A stretch of 38,050 bases of DNA from an uncultured Methanosarcinales archaeon. GTDB taxonomy: Archaea; Nanobdellota; Nanobdellia; Woesearchaeales; GW2011-AR4. The stretch is taken from contig CAZGEW010000001.1 of NCBI GenBank assembly GCA_964524225.1, positions 1-38,050 of the forward strand. Direction: 5' to 3'. Numbering within the stretch: the first letter of the stretch is position 1; the number at the start of each line of letters is the position of its first letter. The position numbers and the translations under genes are program-made. Under the pieces are notes generated by a model. That model saw only the letters and a list, made by a program, of their open reading frames with translations. It made no database searches and was not told where the DNA came from. Shown piece after piece: positions 8,539 to 34,210 of this stretch.

Positions 8539-8546
8539 TTTTAATT

Positions 8547-8579: not shown

Positions 8580-8629
8580 CTAATGGTTTACATAAATTTT
8601 TGTTATCTTTAATTTAATTTTGATTCATT

Positions 8630-9355
8630 TCACGCAATTAAACCTGCTAGTTCTAAAAAATTGTTAATTATTATACGTCCATTTCTTTGATACCCGGGTT
8701 TCAAAATTTGATAATCTTGTAATATTGTTGCTTTATCATATCCTAAAAACATTGTATCAGATCTTAACCAATTCCTGAGCATTGCAGACGTAATCTCAAG
8801 ATGCCCTTGTATACCATATGCTCTTTGCCCAACTTTAACCACTTGTGATTCTATTTGATATTCTCCATGACCTTTACCAAGTAAGGTTACCCCTTCTTTG
8901 AGGACTACAGTTTCTCCGTGCAGTTGAAAAATTGGAAATGGGCTGTTAACTCCTTTTAACAAATTCTCGTTTATTCCTTGCTCTGTGACTTCAACCTGGA
9001 AATAATTTCCATTTTTATCTCTACAACCAACCTCTTTAAAGTCTGCTTTTTGTACTAAACCACCAGCTACTTTGACTAATACCTGCTTTCCAAGACAAAT
9101 ACCAAGATATGCAACATTTTCTTCTAGGGTTTGCTCAACAAATTCCACTTCATTTTTCATTTCTTTATCATTTGCACTTTGAGGACCACCTAAAACTATA
9201 ACAGCAGAATACTCATTAGGATTTGGAAATCTCATACTACGAGAATGTGGATTATATGGTCTAATAGGAATCTTATACCCATCTAAAATAGTCTTTATCA
9301 AACCTGGACCTTCTCGATGTATATTTTTTATAACTAAAACTTCTCCTAAAGCCAT
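8630..9355 (-). CDS. Stand-alone class I glutamine amidotransferase-fold protein (241 aa)
   Basis: Nucleophile elbow YLGICLGKQV and a His-x-Glu pair in GIQGHLE. The start lies 1 nt after the atpA stop. Confidence 0.8.
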   Translation of the reverse strand: MALGEVLVIKNIHREGPGLIKTILDGYKIPIRPYNPHSRSMRFPNPNEYSAVIVLGGPQSANDKEMKNEVEFVEQTLEENVAYLGICLGKQVLVKVAGGLVQKADFKEVGCRDKNGNYFQVEVTEQGINENLLKGVNSPFPIFQLHGETVVLKEGVTLLGKGHGEYQIESQVVKVGQRAYGIQGHLEITSAMLRNWLRSDTMFLGYDKATILQDYQILKPGYQRNGRIIINNFLELAGLIA

Positions 9356-19635: not shown

Positions 19636-19750
19636 TAAATTTTAAAACTTAATTCTTATAGAAGTCTTTAATATTCTATATTTAAATCTTTCCAATACTT
19701 TTATAAATAATTCTAATATATAAGAAAAAAATTTCACCAGTCGAATGCGA

Positions 19751-19783
19751 GTGAGCGAGTTCTTAACGAGCGAACTCGCTCAC
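19751..19783. promoter_or_regulatory. GC-rich perfect 12-bp hairpin GTGAGCGAGTTC-ttaacgagc-GAACTCGCTCAC just upstream of (or within the 5' end of) the AAA+ ATPase gene
   Basis: Read directly. Stands out against the AT-rich background. Confidence 0.5.
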
Positions 19784-19813
19784 ATGTCACAGGCGAAATT
19801 TTTTTATGTCAAA

Positions 19814-20749
19814 ATGCTAAGCGAGCAATTAAAGGAAGTATTGTTAAAAAACACAGACCCTTTTACAGATATACTTGGGCAAGATAAGGCAAAGCAAGGT
19901 ATTAAATCTGCATTGCTTATGAACAGGCATATCATCATTATAGGCGCACCAGGCACAGGAAAGACAACATTAGCAAAAAACATAGCAAAACTATTAGGTG
20001 TAAAAAGATTTGTCAGGATTCAAGGCTCTCCAGATTTAACTGTGGAAGATTTACTTGGTGACATAGACCCGATTAAAGCTTTAAAATTTGGACCTTTGAG
20101 CTTGGAGGCTTTCACCCCTGGCAAAATATTCAAAGCCAATAACGGAATTTTATTTTTTGATGAGCTAAATAGATGTCCTGAAAAAATGCAAAATTCATTA
20201 CTGCAAGTTTTGGAGGAGAGAAAGGCGACTATTGGCTCTTACGATGTTGATTTTGATACAGACTTTATATTTATTGGCACAATGAATCCAGAAGACACAT
20301 CAACTGAAAAGCTGAGTGATGTGTTGCTTGACAGATTTGATATTATCTACATGAATTACCCTGAAAGTGTTGAAATTGAAAAAGAGATTGTAGTTAGCAA
20401 GGGCAAAAAATTAGCTACTGTAAGTGACGAGCTTCTAACAATTATGATTTACTTCATAAGATCATTAAGAAGTGACGAAAGGCTTGAAAAAAAGCCGAGT
20501 GTAAGAGCCTCAATTGGTTTGTACGAGAGATGCCAGTCAAATGCTTTAATCAACGGAAGAAGAATAGTAGAATTTGAAGACATAAAAGAGGTTTTAGTTT
20601 CTGTTTTATCACATAGAATAAGGCTTAAACCTTCTGTTAGATATTTAGAAAGTGTGGAAGATTATATTATTGAGCAATTCCACAAGAACGTTGAATTAAG
20701 CAAATGGCAGAACAATTTAGAAAAGGAAAAAGCAGGTGATTATCGGTAG
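19814..20749 (+). CDS. ChlI/MoxR-like AAA+ ATPase
   Basis: PFTDILGQDKAK..., Walker A GAPGTGKTT, Walker B ILFFDELNR, and sensor/helix-2-insert-like NSLLQVLEERKATI..FIGTMNP. In-frame ATGs also occur at 19745 and 19784. 19814 gives the N-terminal length typical of the family. Confidence 0.8.
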   Translation: MLSEQLKEVLLKNTDPFTDILGQDKAKQGIKSALLMNRHIIIIGAPGTGKTTLAKNIAKLLGVKRFVRIQGSPDLTVEDLLGDIDPIKALKFGPLSLEAFTPGKIFKANNGILFFDELNRCPEKMQNSLLQVLEERKATIGSYDVDFDTDFIFIGTMNPEDTSTEKLSDVLLDRFDIIYMNYPESVEIEKEIVVSKGKKLATVSDELLTIMIYFIRSLRSDERLEKKPSVRASIGLYERCQSNALINGRRIVEFEDIKEVLVSVLSHRIRLKPSVRYLESVEDYIIEQFHKNVELSKWQNNLEKEKAGDYR

Positions 20750-21920
20750 CGTAAAATTGACATTTAAGGAAATTAGTAAAGTAGAAGAATTAAGTGGAAA
20801 GCTGGCATTTCAAGAGCTTGAAAACAAGTTTATGCATTCTGTTATAGAAAATGATAAACAAACAATAGACAATGGTAAATTAATAAATGGCATGATAAAT
20901 CAAGGTATGAGTTCTTTCACTCCTGATTTAATGTTTGAGCAACTTATAAAAAACTATTCCATTGCAAAACAAATCTATGGCGATTCTGTTATAAAACTTG
21001 TATTTGGGTACGAGCCTGATTATATTAGAAGAAATATAGGGTTTCCTGAATTTCAGAAAGAGCTTAAAGAAAGGTTAAGTAATAAGGTTGAGGAGCTTAA
21101 GGAAGAGGGTTTTTTGGATAATGACTACTCTTTGACAGAAAAGGGCTTTGAGTTTGCATCCCTTATTTTATATTTTGAGGAACTTGATAAAATAATTACT
21201 AAAGATGTTATAGGAGAAAAAATAAGTAAAAAGCCTTTTATTTATGGTGAAAAATATAGCTCCAGATTATACAAAAAAGGCGATAGGTACAGAGACATCG
21301 CATTAAAAAAATCTGTTAAACTTGCAATCAGAAGAGGCCATGATAATTTATGTGAAAAAGATTTAATGGTTTATGAAAAGCAAAGGAAAGGTCAAGCATA
21401 CATTGTTTATGCACTTGATGCATCTGGCTCAATGAGGGGCAAGAAGATTGAGGCATGCAAGAAAGCCGGAATAGCACTCGCATATAAAGCGATTAATGAA
21501 AAAGACAAAGTTGGGTTGATAGTTTTTGGCTCAGAGATAAAAAATGTTATCGAGCCGACGCTAGATTTCACACGATTGCTAAAAGGAATAACTAAAGTAA
21601 GAGCTTCTAAAGAAACAAATATTATCTCAACATTACAGAAAGCAATTGAGCTGTTTCCAAGTGAAAACATAACAAAGCATTTAATTCTTATAACAGATGC
21701 AATGCCAACAAAAGGCGAAACTCCTGAAAAGTCAACACTTGAAGAAGCTTCAATAGCCAGAAGCAAAGGAATTACTATATCATTAATTGGCATCAATCTT
21801 AATGAGAAAGGGAAAAAATTTGCAGAGAAAATAGTAGAGATTGGAGAAGGTAGGCTATATATTGTCAGAAACATAGAAAATATAGATAAGATTATTTTAG
21901 AAGATTATTATAGTTTTTGA
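20736..21920 (+). CDS. von Willebrand factor A (vWA) domain protein, partner of the AAA+ ATPase
   Basis: MIDAS motif YALDASGSM, then GLIVFGSE and LILITDAMPTKG in the C-terminal half. GTG start overlaps the upstream stop by 14 nt; the start is uncertain. Confidence 0.8.
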   Translation: MIIGSVKLTFKEISKVEELSGKLAFQELENKFMHSVIENDKQTIDNGKLINGMINQGMSSFTPDLMFEQLIKNYSIAKQIYGDSVIKLVFGYEPDYIRRNIGFPEFQKELKERLSNKVEELKEEGFLDNDYSLTEKGFEFASLILYFEELDKIITKDVIGEKISKKPFIYGEKYSSRLYKKGDRYRDIALKKSVKLAIRRGHDNLCEKDLMVYEKQRKGQAYIVYALDASGSMRGKKIEACKKAGIALAYKAINEKDKVGLIVFGSEIKNVIEPTLDFTRLLKGITKVRASKETNIISTLQKAIELFPSENITKHLILITDAMPTKGETPEKSTLEEASIARSKGITISLIGINLNEKGKKFAEKIVEIGEGRLYIVRNIENIDKIILEDYYSF

Positions 21921-21976: not shown

Positions 21977-23395
21977 ATGAAAACAGCACGTAGAATAACA
22001 AGCAATTTTATAAGTCTTGCTCTATCAGAACTTATATCAAAAATAATACAGATTATCATCTTTATTTATTTAGCAAGAATATTTGGCAAATTAGAATTTG
22101 GAAAATTTGGTTTTGGGTTTGCATTTGCTACCATAATTGCCGTAATTGCAGATTTTGGGATTAACACTCTGTTGATAAGGGAGATAAGCAGAGATAAAAA
22201 GAATGTAGGCAAATATGTGTCTAATGCATTAACGATAAAATGCTTTTTATCACTAATCACATTTTTTATAGCTAGTATCTTCCTTATTATAGGAAAATAT
22301 TCTAAGGATACCGTTGCAATTGCATACATAATGCTTGTGTTTATGGTTTTGCAAACATTTACTGATTTATTCTATTCTGTTTTCAGAGCGTTTGAGAAAA
22401 TGTATTACGACGCATTACTGAAGGTTGTAAGGGTTGTTATTTTATTGTTGTTGGTTTCTCTTTCAATGAAGGTAGACTATACATTAACTCAACTAACAGT
22501 TATATTTCCACTTTCAGAGATTATTGTGCTTATTATGTCCATAGCAATCTACATGAAAAATTTTGCTAAAATTTCCTTTGGTTTCGACTTAAACTTTGAT
22601 AAAAAGCTTATGAAAGAATCATTCTTTTTCTGTTTGTCAATCTTATTTGGGAATATATTGCTGTATATTGACACCGTAATACTTGAAAATATTAAGCCTA
22701 ACGAAGTAGGTCTTTATGCCGCTGCATACAATTTACTATTGGGCATGACTTTTATTCCACTTATGTTCTCAAACGCAGTTTATCCAGTTTTTTCTAGATA
22801 CTTTATAAACAACAAGGAATTACTTAAGTTTGCATACAAAAAATCGTACCAGTATATGCTAATGTTAGGACTGCCGATAACCTTAGGCATTTTTATATAC
22901 GCTAGGAATATTGTACTTTTGGCTTATGGAGTTGAATACTCAAGGTCTATCATTGCAGTAAAGATACTCTGCTGGTTTATACTTCTAAGATTTGTAAACA
23001 TAACATCCGGCACATTGTTGTCGTCAATCAATAAGCAAAGAGCTCGTGTAATTGGACAAGGAATTGTGGCTACTGTAAATTTAGTACTTAACTTAATGTT
23101 AATCCCAAAATATGGATTTATTGGAGCTGCTATTGCAACTATTGCATCAGAGAGCCTTTTCCTAGTTACATACAATTACTTTATATATAAAGAAAGGCTT
23201 AATTTCAAACTGAAAGAAATTTTTATAAAGCCATTAATTGCATCTGTCATTATGACAATAGTTATATTATTAATTCCAAATTTGCTTGCTGGATTTTTTT
23301 TAGGTGCACTATCTTATTTTGGTGTGATGTTAATACTCAGGGCATTTAAACAAGAAGACAAACAGCTAATAATAAAGGTACTAAGCAATAGGTAA
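21977..23395 (+). CDS. Wzx-like oligo/polysaccharide flippase (MOP superfamily)
   Basis: 472 aa and about 12-14 predicted TM helices. An N-terminal ..ALSELISKIIQIIIFIYLARIFG..FGKF and a C-terminal PKYGFIGAAIATIASE are typical of polysaccharide-biosynthesis (Wzx/RfbX) proteins. Confidence 0.8.
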   Translation: MKTARRITSNFISLALSELISKIIQIIIFIYLARIFGKLEFGKFGFGFAFATIIAVIADFGINTLLIREISRDKKNVGKYVSNALTIKCFLSLITFFIASIFLIIGKYSKDTVAIAYIMLVFMVLQTFTDLFYSVFRAFEKMYYDALLKVVRVVILLLLVSLSMKVDYTLTQLTVIFPLSEIIVLIMSIAIYMKNFAKISFGFDLNFDKKLMKESFFFCLSILFGNILLYIDTVILENIKPNEVGLYAAAYNLLLGMTFIPLMFSNAVYPVFSRYFINNKELLKFAYKKSYQYMLMLGLPITLGIFIYARNIVLLAYGVEYSRSIIAVKILCWFILLRFVNITSGTLLSSINKQRARVIGQGIVATVNLVLNLMLIPKYGFIGAAIATIASESLFLVTYNYFIYKERLNFKLKEIFIKPLIASVIMTIVILLIPNLLAGFFLGALSYFGVMLILRAFKQEDKQLIIKVLSNR

Positions 23396-24172
23396 AACAG
23401 ATTTTAAATTTTTGTCTAGTTCTTTGGCATACTGATTAATAAGGGATTTATCTCCATAAATGCACTCATAAGTTGCTTTATTTTTGTCTGTATTTTGTAT
23501 CCTGTCAGATGGCCTTAATACCAATTCCTTATTCCTTTCATTTAGGTATTTTTTGCACTTTTCTAAGCTTAAGAAAGTAACAGATTTGCCAGTCCCAACA
23601 AAATCTTTTATCGAATCATTCAATGAGAATGTGTAGTCAAATACAGAAATATCTGCATTCTTTAAAATACTGGAAAAAAGCTTTTCATCTTTAAATGCAT
23701 AAAGCAATGAAACACCCTTTGCAAAAAATAAGTTGCATTTGATAATTTTTATTTTTTTGTATAATTTTAACTTATATCTTTCGTGAGTATAAGAAGCAAC
23801 AAAATTCATCATATCAGAATTGTCAACGCCTACAAATAATAGGTCTTTAACATTTAGTAGACCTAATTTTTTGTTGATGTATTCTAACGAGTCAATAACG
23901 CCCATAAGAGATGAGCCAACTTCGTAATAAATCAATTGCTTTGAAAATTTCCTACAAACTTGCAAAGCTGTGTACTTTTTTATATTGTCTTCTAAATCTT
24001 CTTTGTGATAGACATTTTTTATGTTTCTAGTTCTATAAGCTATCATATCTTTCAAATACCTCGCTACCATTAAGAAGTCGTATGCTTCTTGTCCCTCTCT
24101 TGTATCATATACAATTCTTTTTTTGCCTTCTAATTTGCCAAATTCAAGATATGGTTTTGTGCTTTTCATCAT
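23381..24172 (-). CDS. Hypothetical protein (263 aa); possibly a Rossmann-fold, methyltransferase-like protein
   Basis: IYYEVGSSLMGVIDSL followed by LLFVGVDNSDMM loosely resembles class-I/FkbM-type SAM-binding motifs I and post-I. A GTGKS peptide occurs at aa ~196 but not in Walker A context. Overlaps the upstream gene by 29 nt. Confidence 0.5.
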   Translation of the reverse strand: MMKSTKPYLEFGKLEGKKRIVYDTREGQEAYDFLMVARYLKDMIAYRTRNIKNVYHKEDLEDNIKKYTALQVCRKFSKQLIYYEVGSSLMGVIDSLEYINKKLGLLNVKDLLFVGVDNSDMMNFVASYTHERYKLKLYKKIKIIKCNLFFAKGVSLLYAFKDEKLFSSILKNADISVFDYTFSLNDSIKDFVGTGKSVTFLSLEKCKKYLNERNKELVLRPSDRIQNTDKNKATYECIYGDKSLINQYAKELDKNLKSVLPIA

Positions 24173-24872
24173 TGGTACAGCTTAAAATAGCAAGATGTTT
24201 CAAAACAGGATGAATTATAAAATAGGTTTCACCTTCATTTAAATTTTGCTTTTTTGATGGCAACCTTCCATATTTTTTTAGTCTCTTAATTACATCAACT
24301 AAAAGTTCTGATCTCATGTAAGGGTCAAATATATTATCTAAATCAATTAAGTTAGGTTTTTTAAAGCTCTTTTGCATTATTATCCTTCCTGTGTCTACGC
24401 CTTCTTCCATAAAAAATGCTGTAGCACCACAATTATCGTCAATTAAGATGCTATAATAAAAGCAAGTGCTACCTCTATACTTAGGTATTATACCCGGGTG
24501 TATGTGTATAAATTTCTTACCTGTTTTTAGTGTGTCTTTTTTTAATATACCTCCTCCTGTATAGATATAATATTTTTCTTTTCTTCTTAAGAGCTCTTCT
24601 ATAACCCCTTTTTCATTTGGAGTTTTTGCATCTATTATCTTAAATGGAATTCCATTTTTTTTTATTGTAGTCAATGCATCCTCAAATAAATCAAAATACT
24701 TTTTTGCATGATCAATTGAAAATATTGAATTAAATTCGTTGTGATAAATAACATTTTTTCCATCTATTATTATAGCAAATTCTGGAAGGAGTTTATTTTT
24801 TACCAAATTCTGCAAGTAAGCTTTACATCTAAACCCAGGCGTTACTAATATACCAAGATTTTTGACTATCAT
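24144..24872 (-). CDS. Formyltransferase N-terminal-domain-fold protein (242 aa), atypical active site
   Basis: FIHIHPGIIPKYRGSTCFYYSIL...FFMEEGVDTGRII aligns with the Fmt/PurN core (xxNxHxSLLPxYRG ... D-x-G-x-D-T-G). The Asn two residues before the catalytic His is His here. Confidence 0.7.
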   Translation of the reverse strand: MIVKNLGILVTPGFRCKAYLQNLVKNKLLPEFAIIIDGKNVIYHNEFNSIFSIDHAKKYFDLFEDALTTIKKNGIPFKIIDAKTPNEKGVIEELLRRKEKYYIYTGGGILKKDTLKTGKKFIHIHPGIIPKYRGSTCFYYSILIDDNCGATAFFMEEGVDTGRIIMQKSFKKPNLIDLDNIFDPYMRSELLVDVIKRLKKYGRLPSKKQNLNEGETYFIIHPVLKHLAILSCTNDEKHKTIS

Positions 24873-25477
24873 ATTGTTATCTCTTTTATTTCAGACAGGC
24901 TTTTTATTTCTTCTAATTCAATAGCAAAGGCTTGATAAGCCAAAAACAAATCATGCCTTTTAATCTTATTTAATATGGTAGTTATAGCATCATTTAGCTT
25001 TAATGTAGTATTAAGGAATTTTAAATTCCCTGATATTTTGTAATAAAGTAAAGAGTTTAATGATAATAATACATAATTCTCTGTATTTTTGTAATTATTA
25101 GACAATTTTCTGAATTCTTTATCATATACTTCATATAATCTTTTACTTACTTCGTATTTCTTAATAAACTTATTAAGCCAATTATAAATTTCTTTTTTAT
25201 GTCCCTTATTAAGAACTAATAGCATCAAAATATTTTTTAATATTTCATTTGTTCTGAAATTTTTATTAGGTTTTATACGAGCACTATAAACTTTAGATTT
25301 TAGAAAATCTCTTAGTGTTAGATTTTTTTGCTCTTTAATATTTATCTCTAGATTTTTAATAATTTGTAATCTGGTTTTTTTATAAGACTCTAAAAAAGGA
25401 TAACCTTCAAATTTAGAAAATTGATAACTCTGCTGGTATTCGAAAAAATCCTTTTTTATATATTTTTCATAACTCAT
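24869..25477 (-). CDS. Hypothetical, predicted all-helical protein (~202 aa)
   Basis: ORF overlaps the downstream gene by 4 nt (ATGA). The track start at 25504 is TTG. ATG 25477 sits ~29 nt downstream of a TATA-like TTTTTATTTTGA (minus strand, ~25500-25512). Confidence 0.55.
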   Translation of the reverse strand: MSYEKYIKKDFFEYQQSYQFSKFEGYPFLESYKKTRLQIIKNLEINIKEQKNLTLRDFLKSKVYSARIKPNKNFRTNEILKNILMLLVLNKGHKKEIYNWLNKFIKKYEVSKRLYEVYDKEFRKLSNNYKNTENYVLLSLNSLLYYKISGNLKFLNTTLKLNDAITTILNKIKRHDLFLAYQAFAIELEEIKSLSEIKEITI

Positions 25478-25590
25478 TTTAGAAACATAAGTTAAACTAA
25501 TCAAAATAAAAACTTTATGGAAATAAAAGTGTTACGTAAAATTAATAAATAGGCTAATGTCCATAGAGACTATTGTACAACAGTTAACCT

Positions 25591-28500
25591 ATGCTCAATA
25601 GTAAAAATATCAAAAAAATTGTATATACTCCACTTGTAGGAGACCTTTTTCATTACGGTCATTTACAGTTGCTTAAATTTGCAAACTCTCTGGCCGACTA
25701 CCACATATGTAGTGTTCTAACCGACAAAGCTGTCGAATCTTATAGAAAAAAAGCTGTCTGTTCTTTTGAAGAAAGAAGAGCTATAATATCGGAGCTTAAG
25801 TTTGTTGACAGGATAATTGAGCAAGACGAGCTTGATCCAACTGAAAATCTTAAGGAGATTAATAAGGAGTTTAGAGGTTGCAAAATCTTTATTGTTTTTG
25901 GAAGTAATTGGGAGAAGGTGCCTGGTGAAGATTATATTACATCAGCAGGTATTGAGGTTATTAAACACCCATATTATGATAGATTATCGGAATTTAATAT
26001 AGTAAATAGACTTATGCAAGGTCGTAAAGAGTTAATTACAAGCTTTGAAGACTTTAGTAACTATTTTTCAATAAATAACTTTGTGGAGTTTGAAAGTAAC
26101 ATATTTAAAAAACATATAGTATCAACCAAAGCTAATACCTTAAGGACACTTCAGCCATTAGTGAAAAAATCTAGAATTGAAAAATCCTTTGTTTTTACTA
26201 TTTCTGATTGGCACAATAAAGAAGATGAGATTTATAAGCATATTAAAGAAGAATTTGATTCTGAAAGGATAGTTATCAGAAGCTCAGCAATAAATGAAGA
26301 TACCTTTCATTCTTCAATGGCAGGGTGCTTTTATAGTGAGCTCAATGTACCAGCCAATGATAGAAAACGAATAGGAAATTGTGTGAATAGAATAATAAAA
26401 TCTTATAAGGAAAAAGAAATGAACGAACTAGCTAATCAAATCTTGGTACAGAAACAAACAACTGGAATCAAGTTAAGTGGTGTTTTATTAACAAGAACTT
26501 TAGAGAATTACTCTCCTTACTATGTTATAAACTATGACGATAAAACTCAAGCTACAGATAGTGTAACAAAAGGCATCGAAGGTAAAGTTATATACATCAA
26601 TAGGTTCTCTAATCCAGAGTATTATCCAAGTGAAATGAAATCATTAATGGAAGCGGTTAAGGAAATAGAGATAATAATACCTAATATTGCTCTTGATATA
26701 GAATTTGCGATTGACAAAAATGACAATGTCATAATATTTCAAGTTAGACCTATTGCCACAAATAATTATGCTAGTTATATAGAAGATAATGTCTTCCACA
26801 ACAAATTAAATGAAATTAAAGCATTTTTCAGAAGGTTATCGCAAATAAAAAAACATCTGGGTGGCAGCACCACTTACTTTGGTGATATGCCTGACTGGAA
26901 CCCTGCAGAAATTATTGGAGACAACCCAAATTATCTTGACTATTCCCTTTATGACTACATAATAACCGATTCTGTATGGCATCAAGCTAGAACATCGCAA
27001 TATTACTATAATGTAAATCCAGCAAAATTGGTTATCAGATTTGGAAATAAACCATATATCGACTGCAGAAATACATTCAATTCTTTCATACCTAAAAACA
27101 TAAGCATAAAGCTTCGACATAAGTTAGTAAACTTTTATCTTGAGAAGTTAAAGAGAAATCCTCATTTACAAGATAAGGTTGAGTTTGATATAGTTTTCAC
27201 ATGTTATGATTTTTATATAGAAGAAAGACTTAAAGAACTCTTGAGTTATGGATTTAAAAAAAGTGATATACGTAAGCTGAAGAATGAGTTGTTAGAATTA
27301 ACCAATAAACTTATCAAAGAGTCTAAAGAGTCTATCAAAAAAGATATAGATGGCATTAAAAGATTAAAAGACATAAGGATTGAAGTAAAAAAAATTATAA
27401 CATCAACAAAACCTTCGCCAAAAGAGTATGTAAGAAATGCAAAAAAGTTATTAGATAGTTGCAAAGAGCATGGCACTTTACAATTTTCTCGCTTAGCAAG
27501 ATTGGCTTTTATCGGTAAAATTTTGCTAAAAAGCCTTGTCAAAAAGAAAGTTATAAGTGAAATTTTTTACCATTCATTTCTGGAATCAATAAGTACAGTT
27601 GCTACACAGCTAAACTATGACTTCAATAATTTTATAAGTGGGAAAATGTCCAAAAAGAGTTTCTTGGAAAAATACGGACATCTTAGGCCCGGTACTTATG
27701 ACATAAATAGCCAAAGATATGATTTAAACCCTAATATACTTCATGCAAACATTAGCACACATTCTCTCAAAAATAATAAGAAATACTTTAACGTAAATAA
27801 GAAAATCTATGATGATATAAAAAATGTGCTTAAAGAGCATAAAATGGATTTTAGCTCAGAGTATTTTCTTGATTTTGTGAAGGAAGCTATAGAAAAAAGA
27901 GAATTTTCAAAATTTGAATTTACAAAAAATTTAAGTGATGCAATTGAGCTGATAGCTCAGGCAGGAATTCTGCTGGGATTTACAAGAGAAGAGATGTCTC
28001 AGCTTAGTTTTGAGACTATATTTAAGGCTTTAAAATTAAATGAAGACGAAACAAAAAAATTATGGAAACAAAAGATTCAATCTAATTTACAAGAAAGAAA
28101 AATAAACAACAAATTGAAGTTGCCACCTATAATATTTTCTGAAAGGGACTTTGATATAGTAACGTATTATGATGCAAGGCCTAACTTCATAACTCAAAAA
28201 AAGGTAAAAGGGGCTGTGATAAATCTTGATAATGTTTCCAGTAGTAATGTCCCTCAACTTGATGGTAGGGTAGTTATTCTTGAAAAAGGGGATCCTGGGT
28301 ATGATTGGATATTTACAAAAAACCCTCTTGCGCTTATAACAAAATATGGTGGCGTAGCATCCCATATGTCTATTAGATGCGCTGAATTTGGTATACCAGC
28401 TGCAATTGGCTGTGGCAATATTATTTTTGATATGGCAAAAAATGCCAAAATGCTTTATATGGACTGCGCATTAGGCAAAATCATGCCACTGGATAACTAA
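25591..28500 (+). CDS. Fusion protein: N-terminal cytidylyltransferase + PPDK/PEP-synthase-like ATP-grasp + C-terminal phosphohistidine swivel domain; candidate Cj1416+Cj1418-like phosphoramidate pathway enzyme
   Basis: HxGH motif GDLFHYGH (aa 17-24) with a TagD-like N-terminal ~140 aa. IVIRSSAINEDTFHSSMAGCFYSELNV is a PPDK_N signature. KYGGVASHMSIRCAEFGIPAAIGCG is a PEP-utilizer mobile-domain signature (His925, nt 28363-28365). Confidence 0.8.
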   Translation: MLNSKNIKKIVYTPLVGDLFHYGHLQLLKFANSLADYHICSVLTDKAVESYRKKAVCSFEERRAIISELKFVDRIIEQDELDPTENLKEINKEFRGCKIFIVFGSNWEKVPGEDYITSAGIEVIKHPYYDRLSEFNIVNRLMQGRKELITSFEDFSNYFSINNFVEFESNIFKKHIVSTKANTLRTLQPLVKKSRIEKSFVFTISDWHNKEDEIYKHIKEEFDSERIVIRSSAINEDTFHSSMAGCFYSELNVPANDRKRIGNCVNRIIKSYKEKEMNELANQILVQKQTTGIKLSGVLLTRTLENYSPYYVINYDDKTQATDSVTKGIEGKVIYINRFSNPEYYPSEMKSLMEAVKEIEIIIPNIALDIEFAIDKNDNVIIFQVRPIATNNYASYIEDNVFHNKLNEIKAFFRRLSQIKKHLGGSTTYFGDMPDWNPAEIIGDNPNYLDYSLYDYIITDSVWHQARTSQYYYNVNPAKLVIRFGNKPYIDCRNTFNSFIPKNISIKLRHKLVNFYLEKLKRNPHLQDKVEFDIVFTCYDFYIEERLKELLSYGFKKSDIRKLKNELLELTNKLIKESKESIKKDIDGIKRLKDIRIEVKKIITSTKPSPKEYVRNAKKLLDSCKEHGTLQFSRLARLAFIGKILLKSLVKKKVISEIFYHSFLESISTVATQLNYDFNNFISGKMSKKSFLEKYGHLRPGTYDINSQRYDLNPNILHANISTHSLKNNKKYFNVNKKIYDDIKNVLKEHKMDFSSEYFLDFVKEAIEKREFSKFEFTKNLSDAIELIAQAGILLGFTREEMSQLSFETIFKALKLNEDETKKLWKQKIQSNLQERKINNKLKLPPIIFSERDFDIVTYYDARPNFITQKKVKGAVINLDNVSSSNVPQLDGRVVILEKGDPGYDWIFTKNPLALITKYGGVASHMSIRCAEFGIPAAIGCGNIIFDMAKNAKMLYMDCALGKIMPLDN

Positions 28501-28501
28501 A

Positions 28502-29188
28502 ATGTTTGTTGCAATATCACAAAGAAACATGAAAATTGAAAATGGCAATAGAGATGCACTTGAAAATACATATGTAAGATATTTTGAAAAATTTGGAGTT
28601 ACGCTTTTGCCTATACCAAATGTATCAGAAAATTTAGATAATTATTTTGACAAGATTCCAATAAAAGCAATTATCTTGTCTAGTGGTAATGATGTAAACC
28701 CGCAATTATACAATGCACGATTAAAAAATGAAGATTTCTCAATAGAGAGGGATAAAACAGAAAAAAGGCTTATTGAGCTTTCTATTAAAAGAAAGCTGCC
28801 TTTACTTGGTATCTGTAGAGGTATGCAATTTATAAACGTATATTTTGGAGGGAGCCTTATTCAAAATGTAAAAGATAAGACTGGCATAAGCCATGTTGCT
28901 ATAACTCATTCAATAAGAATAACAGACAATAGAACAACTGAATTTATGAATATAAAATCTGCCATAGTTAATTCTTACCACAACCAAGGCATTGATGAAA
29001 ATTCTTTATCACCTAAATTAAAATATTTTACAATAACAAATGATGGAATTATCGAAGGCCTTTATCATCCAAAATATCCAATTGCAGGAATACTTTGGCA
29101 TCCTGAAAGAGCAAATTCTGATAAAAAATTTGATAAAAAAATAGTTAAGGCATTTTTGAACAAGAAATTATTTTGGGGTGAAAAATAG
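28502..29188 (+). CDS. Peptidase C26 / class I glutamine-amidotransferase-like hydrolase (Cj1417-like candidate)
   Basis: PLLGICRGMQFINVYFGG (Cys105 nucleophile) and GILWHPE (His/Glu) are gamma-glutamyl hydrolase (PuuD/C26) signatures. The ATG lies 1 nt after the upstream stop. Confidence 0.8.
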   Translation: MFVAISQRNMKIENGNRDALENTYVRYFEKFGVTLLPIPNVSENLDNYFDKIPIKAIILSSGNDVNPQLYNARLKNEDFSIERDKTEKRLIELSIKRKLPLLGICRGMQFINVYFGGSLIQNVKDKTGISHVAITHSIRITDNRTTEFMNIKSAIVNSYHNQGIDENSLSPKLKYFTITNDGIIEGLYHPKYPIAGILWHPERANSDKKFDKKIVKAFLNKKLFWGEK

Positions 29189-29241: not shown

Positions 29242-30348
29242 ATGATAGCTATAATTGGTGCAGGGCCTGCTGGGAGCTACTTAGCTTACTTACTTGCAAA
29301 GCAAGGACAAGATGTTGCTATATTTGAAGAGCATGATGTTGTTGGATTGCCGATTCAATGTACTGGCATTGTAACTCACTCAATTGAAAAGTTCTTTAAG
29401 TTGAAAAATGAGATAATTGCGAATAGACTTGACAAGGTTATTGTTATTAGCAAAAATAATAGAGTAACAGTTAATGTTGATGAAATCGTGATGTGGCGTG
29501 ATAAATTTGATAGGTTTGTTGCTGAAATGGCGCAAGACGTCGGCGCAAAAATCTCGCTTAATCATAAATTTGTTGGATTAAGTGGAAAAAACTTAATTAA
29601 AGTAAAAGACAAAAAAATCGATAGGATAAAAGAAATAAAAGCAGATGTCATAGTTGGAGCAGATGGTCCATATTCAGCTGTTGCAAAGGCTGCAGGCTTA
29701 AGCGTAAGTTCTAAGAACTATGTTGGAATGCAAGCAAAGGTAAAGCTAAGCATTGACACAAAAGCTTTTGAAACTTATTTTGGCAGCGATTTTCCAAACT
29801 TCTTTGGGTGGTGCGTACCTGAATCAGAAGATACTGTAAGGCTAGGTATTGGTTGCTTTGAAAATACACAAGAATATTTTTACAGATTTTTAAAAAATAG
29901 AGCTGGTAAAAAAGAGATATTGTGCTGGGAAAGCGGTTTGATTCCATTGTATAACCCTAGAAAAATTATACACAAAGAAAATGTGTATCTGATAGGAGAT
30001 GCTGCTACGCAGCTAAAAGCAACGACAGGTGGCGGGATTATACCGTCACTTAAAGCTGCACATACATTATGTGATTGTATTGTAAACAAGAAAGACTATA
30101 ACAAGGAATTCAGAAGACACTCCGGAAGAGAACTTCTTTTACATCTCACAATAAGGAATTTATTAAATAAATTTTCTGATAAAGATTATGACAAACTACT
30201 TAGTTTAATGGAGCAAGAAAAGGTTAAAAAAATATTGAAAAAATATGATAGAGATACACCAATACCTCTTGTCGCTAATCTTCTGCTTAAAGAACCAAGA
30301 TTTTTGTACTTTACAAAAAAATTAATTTATCTTACAAAACCTTTTTAA
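29242..30348 (+). CDS. Geranylgeranyl reductase family flavoprotein
   Basis: N-terminal FAD dinucleotide fold IAIIGAGPAGSYLAYLLAKQGQDVAIFEE, then GADGPYSAVAK and YLIGDAA. These are typical of archaeal GGR / digeranylgeranylglycerophospholipid reductase homologs. Confidence 0.85.
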   Translation: MIAIIGAGPAGSYLAYLLAKQGQDVAIFEEHDVVGLPIQCTGIVTHSIEKFFKLKNEIIANRLDKVIVISKNNRVTVNVDEIVMWRDKFDRFVAEMAQDVGAKISLNHKFVGLSGKNLIKVKDKKIDRIKEIKADVIVGADGPYSAVAKAAGLSVSSKNYVGMQAKVKLSIDTKAFETYFGSDFPNFFGWCVPESEDTVRLGIGCFENTQEYFYRFLKNRAGKKEILCWESGLIPLYNPRKIIHKENVYLIGDAATQLKATTGGGIIPSLKAAHTLCDCIVNKKDYNKEFRRHSGRELLLHLTIRNLLNKFSDKDYDKLLSLMEQEKVKKILKKYDRDTPIPLVANLLLKEPRFLYFTKKLIYLTKPF

Positions 30349-30385
30349 AACAAGCTCTTTATCTTTTGGTGGGTGTGTACAATTT

Positions 30386-33300
30386 ATGGATTCAAAAGAA
30401 GATGATGATATACCTATAGACTTTAGTAAAATAAAGAATTTCTTTAAAAGGAATAAAGAAGAAAAAAAATTAGAAGAGGCAAAAGAGCCTATTAAAGAAG
30501 ATGAAATAATAATAGATTTTAGTAAGATAAAAAAGTTCTTCAAAAGCGATGAAATAGAAAAAGTTAAAACTGAGCACAAAGAGGAAAAAGTTAGCGATGA
30601 CGAGCTTTCTTTCGATTTCACTAAAATAAAAAAATTTTTTAAGTCTGACGAAAAGCAATATACAGCTGAAGATGAAGTACAAATAAATTGGTCCAAAATA
30701 ATTGATTTCTTTAAAAAATATGGCATAGTATTTATTGCTTTAATGCCAATAATACTCTCAATTTATGTTAGAATGCAGGCAGGCTTCTTACCAATAGTTG
30801 ATGATTGGGCAACAAATAGCGTAATAAATTCTATAAAATCCCAGATAAGCGCTTCTATAAATCAGCAGTATCCTAATTTGCCAGATGCAAACAAAAATGC
30901 ATTAGTTGATACAGAACTGCAAAAATTCATAAGTCAAAACAAGCAAAGGATTGACCAGCAGATAAGAGATACATCAAACTATTTTAAATCATTTTTTCTA
31001 GATGAAAATGGAAAAAACTATATGCCTGACATCGATCCATATTATTGGTATAGATATGCAAAAAATATAGTTGAGCATGGACATCCAGGCGACACATTAA
31101 AGGATAATAAACCTTATGACGATCATCAATTAGCGCCTGTAGGCAGATTTGTAACTCCAGATGTATTCCATGCCTATTCCTTAGCTTATTTTTATAAAGT
31201 AATGCATATTTTTGCTCCAAATTTAACCTTAATGCGCTCGATGTTCTATTATCCTATATTTGTTTCGGCATTAGCTGTTTTGCTTGTTTTTTTAATTGCA
31301 AGAAAAATCTCTGGAAATTTAGGCGGTTTCTTTGCAGGGCTAATAATGGCTGTCAATTCAGCCTTTTTGGGCAGAACTCTTTTCGGACATGCAGATAGCG
31401 ACGCATGGGTTGTATTCTTTCCTTTGCTCATAACATGGTTATTTGTTATTATTATAGAAACCAAAAGTAATCTCAAAATGATAATTCTAACTATAATCGC
31501 AGGTTTTTTAACTGGGCTATATACAGTTGCTTGGACTGGATGGTGGTACGTGTTTGACTTTTTGTTGGTAACTATTGCCATAGAGTTTATCTATTTGTCA
31601 CTTGTACATTTATATAGGGCAAAATTTAATATACGTTCGATTTTTTTTGATAGAGCAATAAGAAATGTTATCCTTATAGGGCTTATTTATTTTTTGTCAA
31701 CAACAATATGTGTAACATTAATATCAGGTTGGGATATGTTTAGGGGCAGTTTTCTTGGTCCACTAAATTTCCCATCGATTAAGGCTCCTGTAAGCCCTTC
31801 ATTATGGCCCAATGTCTTGACAACTGTAGCAGAGCTTAATGAAGGTTCTATTAATAGCATAATCAACTCTATTGGCGGCCAATTCCTTTTCTTAATTAGT
31901 CTTTTTGGATTGATTTTTGCTATCACAAGAAGTGAGGACTTTAAAAGATTTGATTTTGTTTATATAGCAAGTACTGCATTATTCTATATAATTTTGTTTA
32001 TAAGATTTGGAAGCAGAGCACCGCTGTATCAATCAATGCAGCTAACAAGCCTATTAATTTGGATTCTTCTGCCAATATTTGTTAGAATAGTTATAGCAAT
32101 ATACAAAAAAGATATAACATATGATTTTAAGCTTTCAATATTATTATCTTTATGGATAGCCTCAACTATATTTGCAAGCATCAAGGGCATTAGATTTACA
32201 CTATTGATGGCTCCGGCCTTTAGTGTTGCATTTGGTGTTGCGCTAGGGAAATCTTATGTTTATCTTTCTAGATGGTTTACAAAAGAGCTTAAGATTCACA
32301 AGGCTATAGGCTCAAGCATACTAATAATTTTATTTCTTTTAATTTATGTCAGTCCAATCAGAGGAGCAATAGCTTCTGCAGGCTCAGACATTCCAATAGT
32401 CAATGACGCGTGGTATAATGCGTTAATTAACATAAAAAATGACTCAAAAGAAGATGCAATCATAACATCTTGGTGGGATTTTGGTCATCATTTCAAGGCA
32501 ATTGCTGATAGAAGGGTAACATTTGATGGCACAACACAGACCCATCCTGCAGCACATTGGGTAGGAAGATTATTCATGACTGATAATGAGCAAGAAGCTA
32601 TAGGAATTTTAAGGATGCTGGATTGTGGGAGCAATAATGCCTACAAGGAGTTATATAGCATAAACAATGATACCCATTTAACATTAAGAATAATAAAAAA
32701 GATAATTTTATTGGATAAAAAAGATGCGCAAAGGACATTGAGAGATTTAGGATATGAGGATATTCAAATTGAAAAGATATTATTATTGACTCATTGTGAG
32801 CCACCAGAGGCTTATTTAATATCGTCAGAGGATATGATTGGCAAAAGTGGTGTATGGAGCCATTTTGGGAGCTGGAGTTTTGAGAGGGCTGATATATGGC
32901 AAAATGCTAGGAAAATGCCTAAGGAGAAAGCAGTTGAATATATGATAAATAAGTTTAATTATACACAAGAAAGAGCAGAAAACATTTATTTTGATATACA
33001 AACAATTACAAGTGACGGTGATGCAAATACTTGGATTGCTCCATGGCCAGGATATGGTGGCACAATGAGCTGCTATAAAAATAATGAGGGTTTTTATCAA
33101 TGCAGCAACGGTTTTCAAATAAATCTAAGCAATTATGACATTTTTGCTGTTGCTCAGCAAGGAATTGTAAGACCAAGAAAGGCTGCTTTCCCAACATTTG
33201 ATGGGCTTTTGTTTAAGGATTATGATGGAAACACAGCCGATATAGGGTTTACTATAGTGCCAAAGAATGAAAATGAGTTAATGGCAGTTATATCAAGCAA

Positions 33301-33478
33301 AGAACTTACAGGGAGCATATTCACAAGAACTTTCTACATGCAAGGCCATGGTCTTAAATACTTCAAGCTATTTGATCATCAGCGTGGATTAACAGGAACA
33401 GATATATATACTTATAAAGTTGATTGGCAGGGTAAAAATACAACAATAATAGATGTTTATAAGTTAAATACTTCATAA
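30386..33478 (+). CDS. aglB: Archaeal oligosaccharyltransferase AglB (STT3 family) with a repeat-bearing N-terminal extension
   Basis: About 13 TM helices followed by the catalytic-site motif WWDFGHH (WWDYG motif) and a large C-terminal soluble domain. 1030 aa. Confidence 0.9.
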   Translation: MDSKEDDDIPIDFSKIKNFFKRNKEEKKLEEAKEPIKEDEIIIDFSKIKKFFKSDEIEKVKTEHKEEKVSDDELSFDFTKIKKFFKSDEKQYTAEDEVQINWSKIIDFFKKYGIVFIALMPIILSIYVRMQAGFLPIVDDWATNSVINSIKSQISASINQQYPNLPDANKNALVDTELQKFISQNKQRIDQQIRDTSNYFKSFFLDENGKNYMPDIDPYYWYRYAKNIVEHGHPGDTLKDNKPYDDHQLAPVGRFVTPDVFHAYSLAYFYKVMHIFAPNLTLMRSMFYYPIFVSALAVLLVFLIARKISGNLGGFFAGLIMAVNSAFLGRTLFGHADSDAWVVFFPLLITWLFVIIIETKSNLKMIILTIIAGFLTGLYTVAWTGWWYVFDFLLVTIAIEFIYLSLVHLYRAKFNIRSIFFDRAIRNVILIGLIYFLSTTICVTLISGWDMFRGSFLGPLNFPSIKAPVSPSLWPNVLTTVAELNEGSINSIINSIGGQFLFLISLFGLIFAITRSEDFKRFDFVYIASTALFYIILFIRFGSRAPLYQSMQLTSLLIWILLPIFVRIVIAIYKKDITYDFKLSILLSLWIASTIFASIKGIRFTLLMAPAFSVAFGVALGKSYVYLSRWFTKELKIHKAIGSSILIILFLLIYVSPIRGAIASAGSDIPIVNDAWYNALINIKNDSKEDAIITSWWDFGHHFKAIADRRVTFDGTTQTHPAAHWVGRLFMTDNEQEAIGILRMLDCGSNNAYKELYSINNDTHLTLRIIKKIILLDKKDAQRTLRDLGYEDIQIEKILLLTHCEPPEAYLISSEDMIGKSGVWSHFGSWSFERADIWQNARKMPKEKAVEYMINKFNYTQERAENIYFDIQTITSDGDANTWIAPWPGYGGTMSCYKNNEGFYQCSNGFQINLSNYDIFAVAQQGIVRPRKAAFPTFDGLLFKDYDGNTADIGFTIVPKNENELMAVISSKELTGSIFTRTFYMQGHGLKYFKLFDHQRGLTGTDIYTYKVDWQGKNTTIIDVYKLNTS
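30416..30715 (+). repeat. Four copies of an 11-aa motif D-F-S/T-K-I-K-x-F-F-K in the AglB N-terminus, separated by acidic/lysine-rich spacers
   Basis: IDFSKIKNFFK (aa 11-21), IDFSKIKKFFK (43-53), FDFTKIKKFFK (76-86), INWSKIIDFFK (100-110). The last copy ends 2-3 aa before the first TM helix. Confidence 0.75.
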
Positions 33479-34210
33479 ATGGAAAAAAGCAATGTTTGGG
33501 CTGTGATTCCAGCATATAATGAAGAAAGTAATATAGCTAAGATTGTTAAAAAAACAAAAAAATATTTAGCAAATGTTATAGTTGTTGATGATGGAAGCAA
33601 AGATAAAACAAAGGAAGTGGCAGAAAAGGCAGGAGCATTTGTATTAAGTCATGTAGTGAACTTAGGCAAAGGCTCTTCATTAAAAACAGGGTGTGATTAT
33701 GCCTTTGAAAAGGGTGCAAAATTCGTCGTTGTGCTTGATGCTGATGCTCAGCATAACCCTGACGACATACCAAGATTTATTGAAAAATTAAAAAAGTATG
33801 ATATAGTATTTGGCTATAGAAAAGCTAGCAGCAAGATGCCTTTGGTGCTTAGATTTGGAAACTGGTTTATATCAAGTATAGTAAGGGTTCTTTACGGGGT
33901 AGAGCTCAATGATACACAATGTGGGTATCGCGCTTTTACAAGAGACGCTTATATAAAGATTAGGTGGAATGCATTAGACTATTCTATGGAGTCGGAAATG
34001 ATAGCGAGGGCTGGAAAGCAAAGATTAAAATATATCCAAATTCCAATACAAACAATTTACGCTGACAAATATAAAGGTACAACTGTTATTGACGGAGTAA
34101 AGATTGTTTTGAATATGATTTGGTGGAAATTATTTGGCAATGAAAAAATTTCAAGGCAAAACCTTGAAATTTTTTCCAGAAGTCACAGCATACAGAAAAT
34201 AAGAAAATAA
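33479..34210 (+). CDS. GT2 glycosyltransferase (dolichyl-phosphate hexose synthase-like)
   Basis: AVIPAYNEESNI...VIVVDDGSKDKT...VLDADAQH..D...QCGYRAF are classic GT-A / DPM1-like motifs. The ATG immediately follows the aglB stop. Confidence 0.85.
   Translation: MEKSNVWAVIPAYNEESNIAKIVKKTKKYLANVIVVDDGSKDKTKEVAEKAGAFVLSHVVNLGKGSSLKTGCDYAFEKGAKFVVVLDADAQHNPDDIPRFIEKLKKYDIVFGYRKASSKMPLVLRFGNWFISSIVRVLYGVELNDTQCGYRAFTRDAYIKIRWNALDYSMESEMIARAGKQRLKYIQIPIQTIYADKYKGTTVIDGVKIVLNMIWWKLFGNEKISRQNLEIFSRSHSIQKIRK

Follow-up and report, generated by a model that had tools for sequence, protein, structure and literature searches.

Which group is made by two coupled genes in the glycosylation locus of an uncultured archaeon? 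The question is raised by a 38,050-nucleotide stretch of DNA (contig CAZGEW010000001.1 of assembly GCA_964524225.1, positions 1 to 38,050; hereafter the window), in which a gene for a fused nucleotidyltransferase and L-glutamine-kinase-like protein is followed directly by one for a C26-type hydrolase. An earlier note on the window read the pair as part of a route to a phosphoramidate (P-N) donor, like the one that leads to the O-methyl phosphoramidate (MeOPN) of the Campylobacter jejuni capsule. The homology of the kinase and the hydrolase to MeOPN enzymes was borne out; the order of the steps, the fold of the cytidylyltransferase and the claim of novelty had to be revised. At the level of the pathway, it is probable from homology and gene order that the two genes provide the kinase and hydrolase steps (steps 1 and 3 below). 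That they form the core of a glutamine-dependent pathway to a nucleotide-activated P-N donor in which the fused nucleotidyltransferase domain takes step 2 is a tentative reading, with nearly an even chance of being right.

The predicted glutamine kinase and the C26 hydrolase

The fusion gene occupies 25591-28500 of the forward strand and encodes 969 amino acids (aa). Its stop codon (TAA, 28498-28500) is separated by a single base from the ATG of the hydrolase gene (28502-29188, forward strand, 228 aa). The fusion protein begins with an HxGH nucleotidyltransferase domain (PF01467, Pfam CTP_transf_like; TagD/ECT/Fom1-CyTase type), which covers residues 1 to ~172 (25591-26106, forward strand). 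Residues 174-969 (26110-28500, forward strand) make up the L-glutamine-kinase-like part recognised by NF004508/PRK05849, which comprises an ATP-grasp domain, a central domain and a swivelling phosphohistidine domain with His925. The two open reading frames (ORFs) and this three-module architecture had been described correctly in the earlier note, down to the coordinates, the 1-nt gap and the position of every motif. The profile hidden Markov model (HMM) search that was proposed there placed CTP_transf_like, PPDK_N, PEP-utilizers and Peptidase_C26 all above the gathering score.

The kinase part carries the ATP-grasp stretch IVIRSSAINEDTFHSSMAGCFYSELNV at residues 227-253 and the swivel-domain stretch KYGGVASHMSIRCAEFGIPAAIGCG at residues 918-942, with His925 lying within GGVASHMSIR. 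Its Pfam matches are PPDK_N (42.2 bits, cutoff 27) and, at residues 891-961, PEP-utilizers (39.7 bits, cutoff 23.1). The NCBIfam model NF004508 (PRK05849) gives 856.8 bits with a cutoff of 501, and the alignment runs from residue 174 to residue 967 and from position 8 to position 788 of the 789 profile positions. The kinases of complete bacterial cassettes, described below, score 839-946 bits on the same model, of which the C. jejuni kinase Cj1418 is presumably a member as well. The next-best NCBIfam families reach at most 47.6 bits. Identity as phosphoenolpyruvate (PEP) synthase, pyruvate phosphate dikinase (PPDK) or rifampicin phosphotransferase was rejected on these scores, since the PEP synthase/PPDK models give no more than 46.5 bits and the rifampicin phosphotransferase model 19.8 bits. 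Over ~800 aa, the kinase is 33-34% identical to the cassette kinases of Vibrio, Azospirillum and Smac51, some of which are plasmid-borne. When kinase domains from archaea and bacteria were aligned (A1), invariant residues appeared throughout the kinase, many of them in the central, acceptor-side domain. The histidine of the SHM-x-IR motif is also invariant in this alignment and is present in ~116 of 120 homologs. Several close archaeal homologs already bear the label 'glutamine kinase' in JGI/IMG. Judged by profile scores and conserved residues, the kinase part is a homolog of the L-glutamine kinase of the MeOPN pathway.

The hydrolase is of the class-I amidotransferase type and was recognised by the Pfam model Peptidase_C26 with 133.5 bits (cutoff 20.5; 1.2e-38). 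The motifs GICRGMQ (residues 103-109, with Cys105) and GILWHPE (residues 196-202, with His200 and Glu202) are present, and the class-I amidotransferase triad Cys105-His200-Glu202 is intact. Its best NCBIfam model is NF045546 (GCDPHdlase, Cj1417 type), with 106.8 bits and alignment to positions 1-195 of 198. The PuuD model gave 57.4 bits, and the identity of a PuuD-type gamma-glutamyl-gamma-aminobutyrate (GABA) hydrolase was rejected on this comparison. NCBI names the homologs 'gamma-glutamyl-gamma-aminobutyrate hydrolase family protein'. The protein is 26-34% identical to the C26 proteins of bacterial cassettes. In every archaeal locus and in 54 of 61 bacterial ones, a C26 gene goes with the kinase gene, almost without exception immediately 3' of it; the coupling of the two is kept among relatives as an overlap or a 1-nt gap. 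By its profile match and its position, the C26 protein is a homolog of the Cj1417-type hydrolase of the MeOPN pathway, and its predicted activity is that of a gamma-glutamyl-CDP-amidate hydrolase (CDP, cytidine diphosphate). The earlier note had named a kinase of the PEP synthase or rifampicin phosphotransferase type and a hydrolase of the PuuD type as the identities that would speak against it; profile scores and synteny place both proteins with the MeOPN-type enzymes.

Relatives were collected in three ways. A protein search returned 2665 relatives at E <= 1e-5, of which 120 were listed. Nearly all of these 120 have all three domains, and those with a source name are all from DPANN archaea, the closest being Woesearchaeota/Nanoarchaeota-type proteins from metagenome-assembled genomes (MAGs). 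A scan of species-representative genomes yielded at least 585 confirmed relatives from 600 pattern matches; the best 80 loci (L013-L092; L numbers stand for loci and P numbers for proteins) are all bacterial and contain no Campylobacter. A metagenome scan with a single protein gave 9 useful relatives. Cassettes were counted in 61 bacterial loci with a length of 15 kb or more, which were annotated with HMMs built here; on these models, the proteins of the window have family-typical scores (HxGH 277, kinase 1263, C26 342).

In these 61 loci, the partners of the kinase are a LicC-type nucleotidyltransferase (58 loci), a protein like adenosine 5'-phosphosulfate (APS) kinase (58), the C26 hydrolase (54) and a methyltransferase dependent on S-adenosylmethionine (SAM) (52). 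The near-invariant bacterial cassette consists of the genes for the APS-kinase-like protein, the kinase, C26, the LicC-type cytidylyltransferase and the methyltransferase. The Cj1415-Cj1418 set of C. jejuni was reported to turn glutamine, ATP and CTP into 3'-phospho-CDP-amidate (PMC11800397). Since the same set of genes is described there, the bacterial cassette corresponds to Cj1415-Cj1418 in gene content, with methyltransferases in addition. The connection with C. jejuni was made through the names of NCBIfam models, JGI names, secondary literature and the gene content of the cassettes. Archaea and bacteria share the order of the kinase, C26 and LicC-type genes. The survey indicates that the predicted enzymatic core for a P-N donor is far more widespread than Campylobacter.

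The five-gene cassette is indeed very widespread among bacteria and was met in Pseudomonas, Acidobacteriota, Bryobacterales, Alphaproteobacteria, Paenibacillus/Cohnella, Clostridium, Planctomycetota and others. No C26 gene was detected in seven of the 61 bacterial loci; in four of them (L027, L046, L049, L051), the LicC-type gene lies directly 3' of the kinase gene, and the hydrolase step may be supplied differently.

The proposed cytidylylation step

In the pathway of C. jejuni, Cj1418 forms glutamine phosphate, Cj1416 converts it to CDP-L-glutamine, Cj1417 splits this into CDP-amidate and glutamate, and the 3'-kinase Cj1415 (cytidine diphosphoramidate kinase) follows (bioRxiv 10.1101/2024.11.05.622173). 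The NCBIfam name 'gamma-glutamyl-CDP-amidate hydrolase' likewise implies that the hydrolase acts after the cytidylyltransferase. Free phosphoramidate is not an intermediate in the characterised pathway. The earlier note had quoted an outdated order and described a fusion of steps 1 and 3; in the order given here, the fused activities would be the consecutive steps 1 and 2.

Transferred to the window, the pathway would run as follows. Strong homology suggests that in step 1 the kinase would produce L-glutamine phosphate, AMP and Pi. In step 2, the weakest link, the fused HxGH domain would condense glutamine phosphate with CTP to give CDP-L-glutamine, as a non-homologous stand-in for the LicC-type Cj1416. 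In step 3, as homology and synteny suggest, C26 would use Cys105-His200-Glu202 to cut the gamma-glutamyl amide, giving L-glutamate and cytidine diphosphoramidate. For step 4, the gene context points to three proteins of a neighbouring operon described below: w263 would add an O-methyl group, the pair of an fmt-like protein and w211 may take part in the tailoring, and some transferase would put the P-N group on the glycans handled by the flippase and AglB.

Within the HxGH domain, the sequence GDLFHYGH occupies residues 17-24 (FHYGH, 20-24), and CTP_transf_like matches with 38.1 bits (cutoff 21). The best PDB match is the cytidylyltransferase domain of Fom1 (5x3d, 46.9 bits), followed by TagD (1coz). 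The H-x-G-H motif was found in 115 of the 120 homologs, and those 115 show no variation at its H, G and H positions. A second motif, YY-x-[RK]-L-S-x-F, is almost invariant in the family and takes the place of RTEGISTT in TagD. When YYDRLSEF of the window is set against RTxGISTT of TagD/CCT, only the Leu/Ile and Ser positions correspond; the TagD reference sequence of this comparison agrees with the PDB match over residues 5-96. With such conservation, the domain is evidently under selection.

The earlier note held that the window contains the same three folds as the C. jejuni pathway. The cytidylyltransferase is an exception: Cj1416 is a COG1213 enzyme (LicC/IMPCT type), and TagD-type enzymes share no homology with that family (PMC12275187). 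The gene at the Cj1416 position in the bacterial cassettes also encodes an NTP_transf_3 protein, under the PGAP name 'phosphocholine cytidylyltransferase family'. The HxGH domain is at best an analog of Cj1416 and not a homolog. An HMM search of the 38-kb window to E = 10 found no LicC-type/NTP_transf_3 homolog of the cassette gene. Because the C26 hydrolase needs a CDP-glutamine-type substrate and nothing else in the locus makes it, the HxGH domain would supply the phosphoglutamine cytidylyltransferase step here.

A role of the HxGH domain on the product of the kinase is also favoured by the fusion itself, which almost all of the 120 listed relatives share, and by a parallel in Vibrio. The kinase of the Vibrio alfacsensis plasmid pYa108 (L006:8443-11343, 966 aa) has a ~190-aa N-terminal remnant that is LicC-like and lacks the N-terminal nucleotide-binding part. 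It follows from this remnant that a nucleotidyltransferase-type domain was probably fused to this kinase at least twice, with different folds. In the same plasmid locus, a complete LicC-type gene, a gene of the TagF-like glycerophosphotransferase family and cysDN adjoin the kinase gene.

Several points weigh against giving step 2 to the HxGH domain, or against the pathway as a whole. A LicC-type gene is encoded after C26 in all 14 distinct related archaeal loci that have enough sequence 3' of C26 to be counted (L001, L002, L003, L009, L011, L093, L097, L098, L099, L100, L106, L107, L108 and L112); the co-occurrence statistics rest on these 14. Among them are the closest relatives of the window (L108, L107, L112 and L106). 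The LicC-type gene lies within ~1.5 kb of C26 in all relatives, with intervening genes in L009, L107 and L100, and its product is 29-38% identical, over the full length, to the bacterial cassette proteins. Of 15 archaeal loci, the window alone lacks it. Since the LicC-type gene is kept in 14 loci, the HxGH domain does not generally make this enzyme redundant and may act otherwise; the simple equation of the domain with the Cj1416 step, made in the earlier note, is too direct. The kinase of L099 is unfused and without an HxGH domain, yet it is accompanied by C26 and LicC. Together with the presence of LicC in all relatives, this makes the kinase, C26 and the LicC-type nucleotidyltransferase the likely constant core, with the HxGH domain as a DPANN add-on. 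Conversely, the domain is fused to a w263-type methyltransferase in L113, where no kinase gene lies within 10 kb. The 106.8 bits of the C26 protein are below the curated equivalog cutoff of NF045546, which is 250; as the C26 proteins of complete cassettes in bacteria reach no more than 75-127 bits themselves, this cutoff appears to be narrower than the functional family. The archaeal members are known from their gene sequences, and their kinship with the C. jejuni enzymes was drawn through family models, names and gene content. Finally, the contig is 50.6 kb long and the window takes in 38 kb of it, so that genes for a LicC-type enzyme, a 3'-kinase and a transferase may be present in other parts of the genome.

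The last point leads to the strongest alternative, which keeps the same pathway and lets a LicC-type (Cj1416-orthologous) enzyme from outside the window perform step 2. The HxGH domain would then catalyse a second nucleotidyl transfer, either cytidylylating a methylated or tailored P-N intermediate in a Fom1-like manner or activating another phospho-alcohol for the same glycan. Such an arrangement is quite possible without being probable. It accounts for the LicC-type gene after C26 in 14 of 14 archaeal loci, the closest relatives and the unfused L099 included, and for the identity of 29-38% between these proteins and those of bacterial cassettes. It also fits the Fom1 cytidylyltransferase domain as the best PDB match, the fusion of HxGH to a w263 methyltransferase in P0273 and P0281, and the varying position of LicC relative to C26 (L009, L107, L100). 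However, there is no LicC-type sequence in 38 kb, as compared with ~1.5 kb from C26 in all relatives, a second cytidylylation has no precedent in the characterised pathway, and the fusion to the kinase suggests that HxGH acts on the product of the kinase. The assignment of HxGH to step 2 was rated only slightly above that of a LicC-type enzyme outside the window with a second, Fom1-like cytidylylation.

A related but different chemistry, in which the kinase phosphorylates another amide, amine or hydroxyl acceptor, C26 acts as a gamma-glutamyl hydrolase or amidotransferase on another conjugate and the product is not a phosphoramidate donor, is unlikely. Room for it is left by the identity of only 33-34% to the bacterial cassette kinases, by the score of C26 under the curated cutoff, and by the differences of the archaeal loci, in which an HxGH domain is added, an APS-kinase-like gene is usually missing and the methyltransferases are of other kinds; sulfate-activation genes also recur nearby in relatives. 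However, the kinase aligns end to end with its family model and keeps the invariant acceptor-side residues, the order of kinase, C26 and LicC is common to archaea and bacteria, and a gamma-glutamyl hydrolase of the C26 type is chemically sensible only with glutamine as the nitrogen carrier.

It is very improbable that the locus is a decaying remnant whose pathway became non-functional after loss of the LicC-type gene. This would explain why it is the sole LicC-less locus of the 15 archaeal ones, and the tailoring genes have moved to the opposite strand in comparison with L001, L002 and L011. However, both ORFs are full length with all catalytic motifs kept, the HMM scores are typical of the families, and the tailoring operon is intact. 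The idea of ordinary enzymes, a PEP synthase, PPDK or rifampicin-type phosphotransferase beside a PuuD-type gamma-glutamyl-GABA hydrolase, has the shared Pfam domains (PPDK_N, PEP-utilizers, Peptidase_C26) and the NCBI name of the C26 homologs in its favour and is effectively refuted by 856.8 bits on NF004508 as against at most 46.5 and 19.8, by 106.8 bits on the Cj1417-type model as against 57.4 on PuuD, and by the synteny of the cassette.

The divergent operon, the later steps and the surroundings

An adjacent divergent operon (23381-25504, reverse strand), which contains a candidate methyltransferase and was missed in the earlier note, belongs to the proposed phosphoramidate system. The 86 bp between it and the fusion gene (25505-25590) are AT-rich and presumably form a shared promoter region. 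The first gene of the operon encodes w211 (24869-25504, reverse strand), a protein of no known family that was placed in the system by its synteny with the fmt-like gene. It has no Pfam or PDB match and is predicted to be all-helical; a single-sequence AlphaFold2 (AF2) model was unusable, with a predicted local distance difference test (pLDDT) value of 34. It is 40% identical to the product of L001:16239-16970. Homologs of w211 adjoin the fmt-like gene in L001, L002, L011, L108 and L112, and weaker ones do so in the bacterial loci L014, L016 and L063.

The second gene (24144-24872, reverse strand) encodes the fmt-like protein, a candidate tailoring enzyme with a Formyl_trans_N fold (Pfam, 4.7e-10). 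It is 48% identical to the product of L001:16967-17668, and the gene is a conserved partner in L001, L002, L011, L108 and L112, at 36-48% identity. The protein aligns to the catalytic core of FDH/PurN/Fmt and keeps the His and Asp of folate-dependent formyltransferases. The family forms a subfamily of its own, with H-x-H invariant where N-x-H is canonical and with the signature H-x-H...GST...D-x-G. In four bacterial cassettes (L014, L016, L063 and L083), the usual SAM methyltransferase is missing and an fmt-like gene stands inside the cassette instead; in three of these (L014, L016 and L063), a w211-like gene was detected. Because of this position in cassettes without the usual methyltransferase, the fmt-like/w211 pair may be taken as an alternative or additional tailoring unit. 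This suggests that some cultured bacteria make a phosphoramidate variant other than MeOPN. L016 is from Chitinilyticum litopenaei DSM 21440 and L063 from Yoonia sp. The fmt-like domain of L083 forms the C-terminal portion of a stop-to-stop frame of 400 codons and may be fused to its partner.

The third gene encodes w263 (23381-24172, reverse strand), a member of a small DPANN-specific family. Sequence searches of Pfam, NCBIfam and the PDB gave no annotation. An AF2 model based on an alignment of 38 sequences reached a pLDDT of 92.9 and shows the class-I fold of SAM methyltransferases. The top PDB matches found with Foldseek are without exception SAM methyltransferases, including NNMT, EvdMO1 and DhpI (3ou2), the last of which is a phosphonate O-methyltransferase. 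A role of w263 as the replacement nucleotidyltransferase or kinase was rejected on account of this fold. The family has 49 members, several of them on contigs equal in size to contigs of the fusion family. In L112, the w263 homolog directly follows the fmt-like gene and is convergent with the fusion, C26 and LicC-type genes. Based on the model, w263 is a candidate for the O-methyltransferase of the pathway, from a different family than the bacterial enzyme.

A w263-fold domain with a C-terminal HxGH domain occurs in P0273 and P0281 and at L113:10001-11284, and is followed by a gene for a HIT protein. L113 resembles a locus for phosphonate decoration of glycans, with a PEP mutase::NTP_transf_3 fusion, a nucleotidyltransferase::aminotransferase fusion, LicD and a sulfotransferase.

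From the operon and the fused HxGH domain, it may be speculated that DPANN glycans bear a phosphoramidate-type group other than plain MeOPN, made by a route with two cytidylyltransferases; this has a rather small chance of being correct. It is equally doubtful, as a part of this proposal, that CDP-glutamine is made by the LicC-type enzyme, or in the window by the HxGH domain alone. The same low confidence applies to an action of HxGH, w263 and the fmt-like/w211 pair on a cytidylylated P-N intermediate, and to a product such as an N-acylated or N-formylated and/or O-methylated phosphoramidate. If the proposal were true, Chitinilyticum litopenaei and Yoonia sp. would carry the same undescribed modification.

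As for the last steps, the earlier note recognised neither an APS-kinase-like gene nor a transferase in the window, and permissive HMM searches agree. The best hit of the APS-kinase-like search in the window (E 0.011) fell on a MoxR ATPase. TagF/Glyphos_transf, LicD, sulfatase-type and CDP-alcohol transferases are likewise absent from the 38 kb, whereas the relatives have various ones. The window does not hold a complete MeOPN-type cassette: it has homologs of the kinase and the hydrolase, analogs of the cytidylyltransferase (HxGH) and the methyltransferase (w263), and no 3'-kinase or recognisable transferase. Since there is no 3'-kinase in the window, the donor is probably CDP-amidate itself and not its 3'-phosphate.

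In some relatives (P0031, P0054 and L096), an APS-kinase domain is fused N-terminally to the HxGH::kinase protein. These domains score best on generic APS-kinase models and not on the cassette subtype PRK05541. The triple fusions are suggestive of a Cj1415-type step; they were downgraded as proof of it because the models are generic and sulfate-activation genes co-occur. Such genes lie beside the kinase, C26 and LicC module in L001, L002, L009/L010, L011/L012, L098 and L100 and on the Vibrio plasmid (L006). They encode ATP sulfurylase, CysD/CysN-like proteins, APS kinase fused to a CysQ-like phosphatase, and sulfotransferases, and a HIT protein recurs among them. The order fmt-like, HIT, ATP sulfurylase is fixed in L002, L011 and L012. 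HIT enzymes include phosphoramidases and APS:ammonia adenylyltransferases. The neighbourhood may reflect either sulfation encoded at the same place or a biochemical link.

The setting of the two genes is archaeal and glycan-related. The AglB/flippase glycosylation locus of an archaeon, as the earlier note had it, was recovered with Pfam (Polysacc_synt, STT3, GT2, GT9 and an A-type ATPase operon). A Wzx-type flippase (21977-23395, forward strand; Polysacc_synt, 3.7e-40) is convergent with w263, and in L001, L002, L009, L011 and L112 the fusion gene likewise has a flippase from this family no more than 10 kb away. A gene for geranylgeranyl reductase begins 54 bp 3' of the C26 gene. Farther along lies the gene for the AglB/STT3 oligosaccharyltransferase (30386-33478, forward strand; STT3, 6.6e-35), after which come a GT2 glycosyltransferase (Glycos_transf_2, 33479-34210) and genes for a DUF2304 protein and a GT9 glycosyltransferase (Glyco_transf_9), all assigned with Pfam.

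Some further features of the window were noted. The N-terminus of AglB (30386-30730, forward strand) is a charged extension of ~110 residues ahead of the first membrane helix and contains the peptide motif [ID]FSKIK-x-FFK four times; TRF found no tandem repeat at the DNA level. A serine-rich 134-aa antisense ORF (30322-30726) that overlaps this extension is probably spurious. Subunit A of the A-type ATPase (9357-12599, reverse strand) is a 1080-aa ORF split by an intein with a LAGLIDADG homing endonuclease (Intein_splicing 285-739, LAGLIDADG_3 553-620). A separate 403-aa LAGLIDADG_3 ORF (1661-2872, reverse strand) adjoins a GatB/E-like gene. Between the ATPase subunit genes (8104-9355, reverse strand) lie genes for a second class-I glutamine amidotransferase (241 aa) and a Pol-beta-type nucleotidyltransferase (144 aa), and a pair encoding a MoxR-type AAA ATPase and a VWA-domain protein (19745-21920, forward strand) is found 5' of the flippase gene. 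Neither pair has an evident link to the phosphoramidate finding.

Novelty and comparison with known systems

According to a 2019 review, MeOPN sugars are known only from Campylobacter, and the capsules of this genus are the only place where the modification has been demonstrated by chemical means. One statement on archaeal MeOPN genes was found in the literature consulted, and it concerns Borg elements (bioRxiv 10.1101/2024.11.05.622173). The earlier note overstated the undescribed status of the system, given the 2665 relatives, some named 'glutamine kinase' at JGI, and the MeOPN genes predicted for archaeal Borgs in 2024. The basic chemistry is known from C. jejuni, and the archaeal fusion family is already in the databases under generic names or as 'glutamine kinase'. 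What is new is the HxGH::kinase fusion as a DPANN-wide variant and its non-homology to Cj1416. The coexistence of this fusion with a LicC-type enzyme in all relatives, and not in the window, is also new, as are the fmt-like/w211 pair and the w263 methyltransferase.

If true, P-N groups on the S-layer or N-glycans of host-attached, mostly uncultured archaea would add a new class to the known modifications of archaeal glycans. MeOPN affects phage recognition and immune evasion in Campylobacter. Judging from homology and gene context, the non-homologous HxGH fusion and the fmt-like pair are leads to new enzymology.

Compared with the MeOPN system of C. jejuni, the window has in common a PEP-utilizer-type kinase with a swivel histidine, a C26 protein that scores best on the Cj1417 equivalog, a location in a surface-glycan locus and glutamine as the logical nitrogen carrier. 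It differs in its cytidylyltransferase, which is of the HxGH/TagD type and fused to the kinase, whereas Cj1416 is free-standing and of the COG1213/LicC type. The window is also without an APS-kinase-like 3'-kinase, a Cj1419/1420-type methyltransferase and a recognisable transferase, and its host is an archaeon. The bacterial five-gene cassettes, such as those of Azospirillum sp. TSA2s (plasmid p2), Pseudomonas taiwanensis and many Acidobacteriota, share the order of kinase and then C26. However, their kinases lack the HxGH fusion, and the LicC-type nucleotidyltransferase, the APS-kinase-like protein and the MT_bact methyltransferase, which they almost always have, are missing in the window.

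The nearest kin are the other members of the DPANN fusion family (Woesearchaeota/Nanoarchaeota MAG proteins such as P0079, P0096 and P0114), which have the same three-domain architecture at 46-57% identity and a coupled C26 gene; many of these loci also have fmt-like and w211-like partners and a flippase as neighbour. They differ in the LicC-type nucleotidyltransferase of all 14 loci, in the APS-kinase domain of some and in the Sat/HIT or sulfotransferase genes of many, none of which the window has.

An architectural parallel is offered by Fom1 of Streptomyces wedmorensis (5x3d), in which an HxGH cytidylyltransferase domain is likewise fused to the initiator of an unusual phosphorus-bond pathway. 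The partner in Fom1 is a PEP mutase that forms a C-P bond, whereas that in the window is a kinase that would form a P-N bond. The cytidylyltransferase domain of Fom1 acts on 2-hydroxyethylphosphonate, in a transient cytidylylation during fosfomycin synthesis. The MeOPN cluster of Methanoperedens Borgs (bioRxiv 10.1101/2024.11.05.622173) resembles the window in that kinase, cytidylyltransferase and hydrolase genes were predicted in silico in archaeal DNA, in regions for glycan decoration. There, the genes are separate and belong to an extrachromosomal element found in a methanotroph, and the cytidylyltransferase is of the LicC type, with one copy fused to a PEP mutase; the window, in contrast, carries a fusion of an HxGH cytidylyltransferase and a kinase in a DPANN-like cellular genome.

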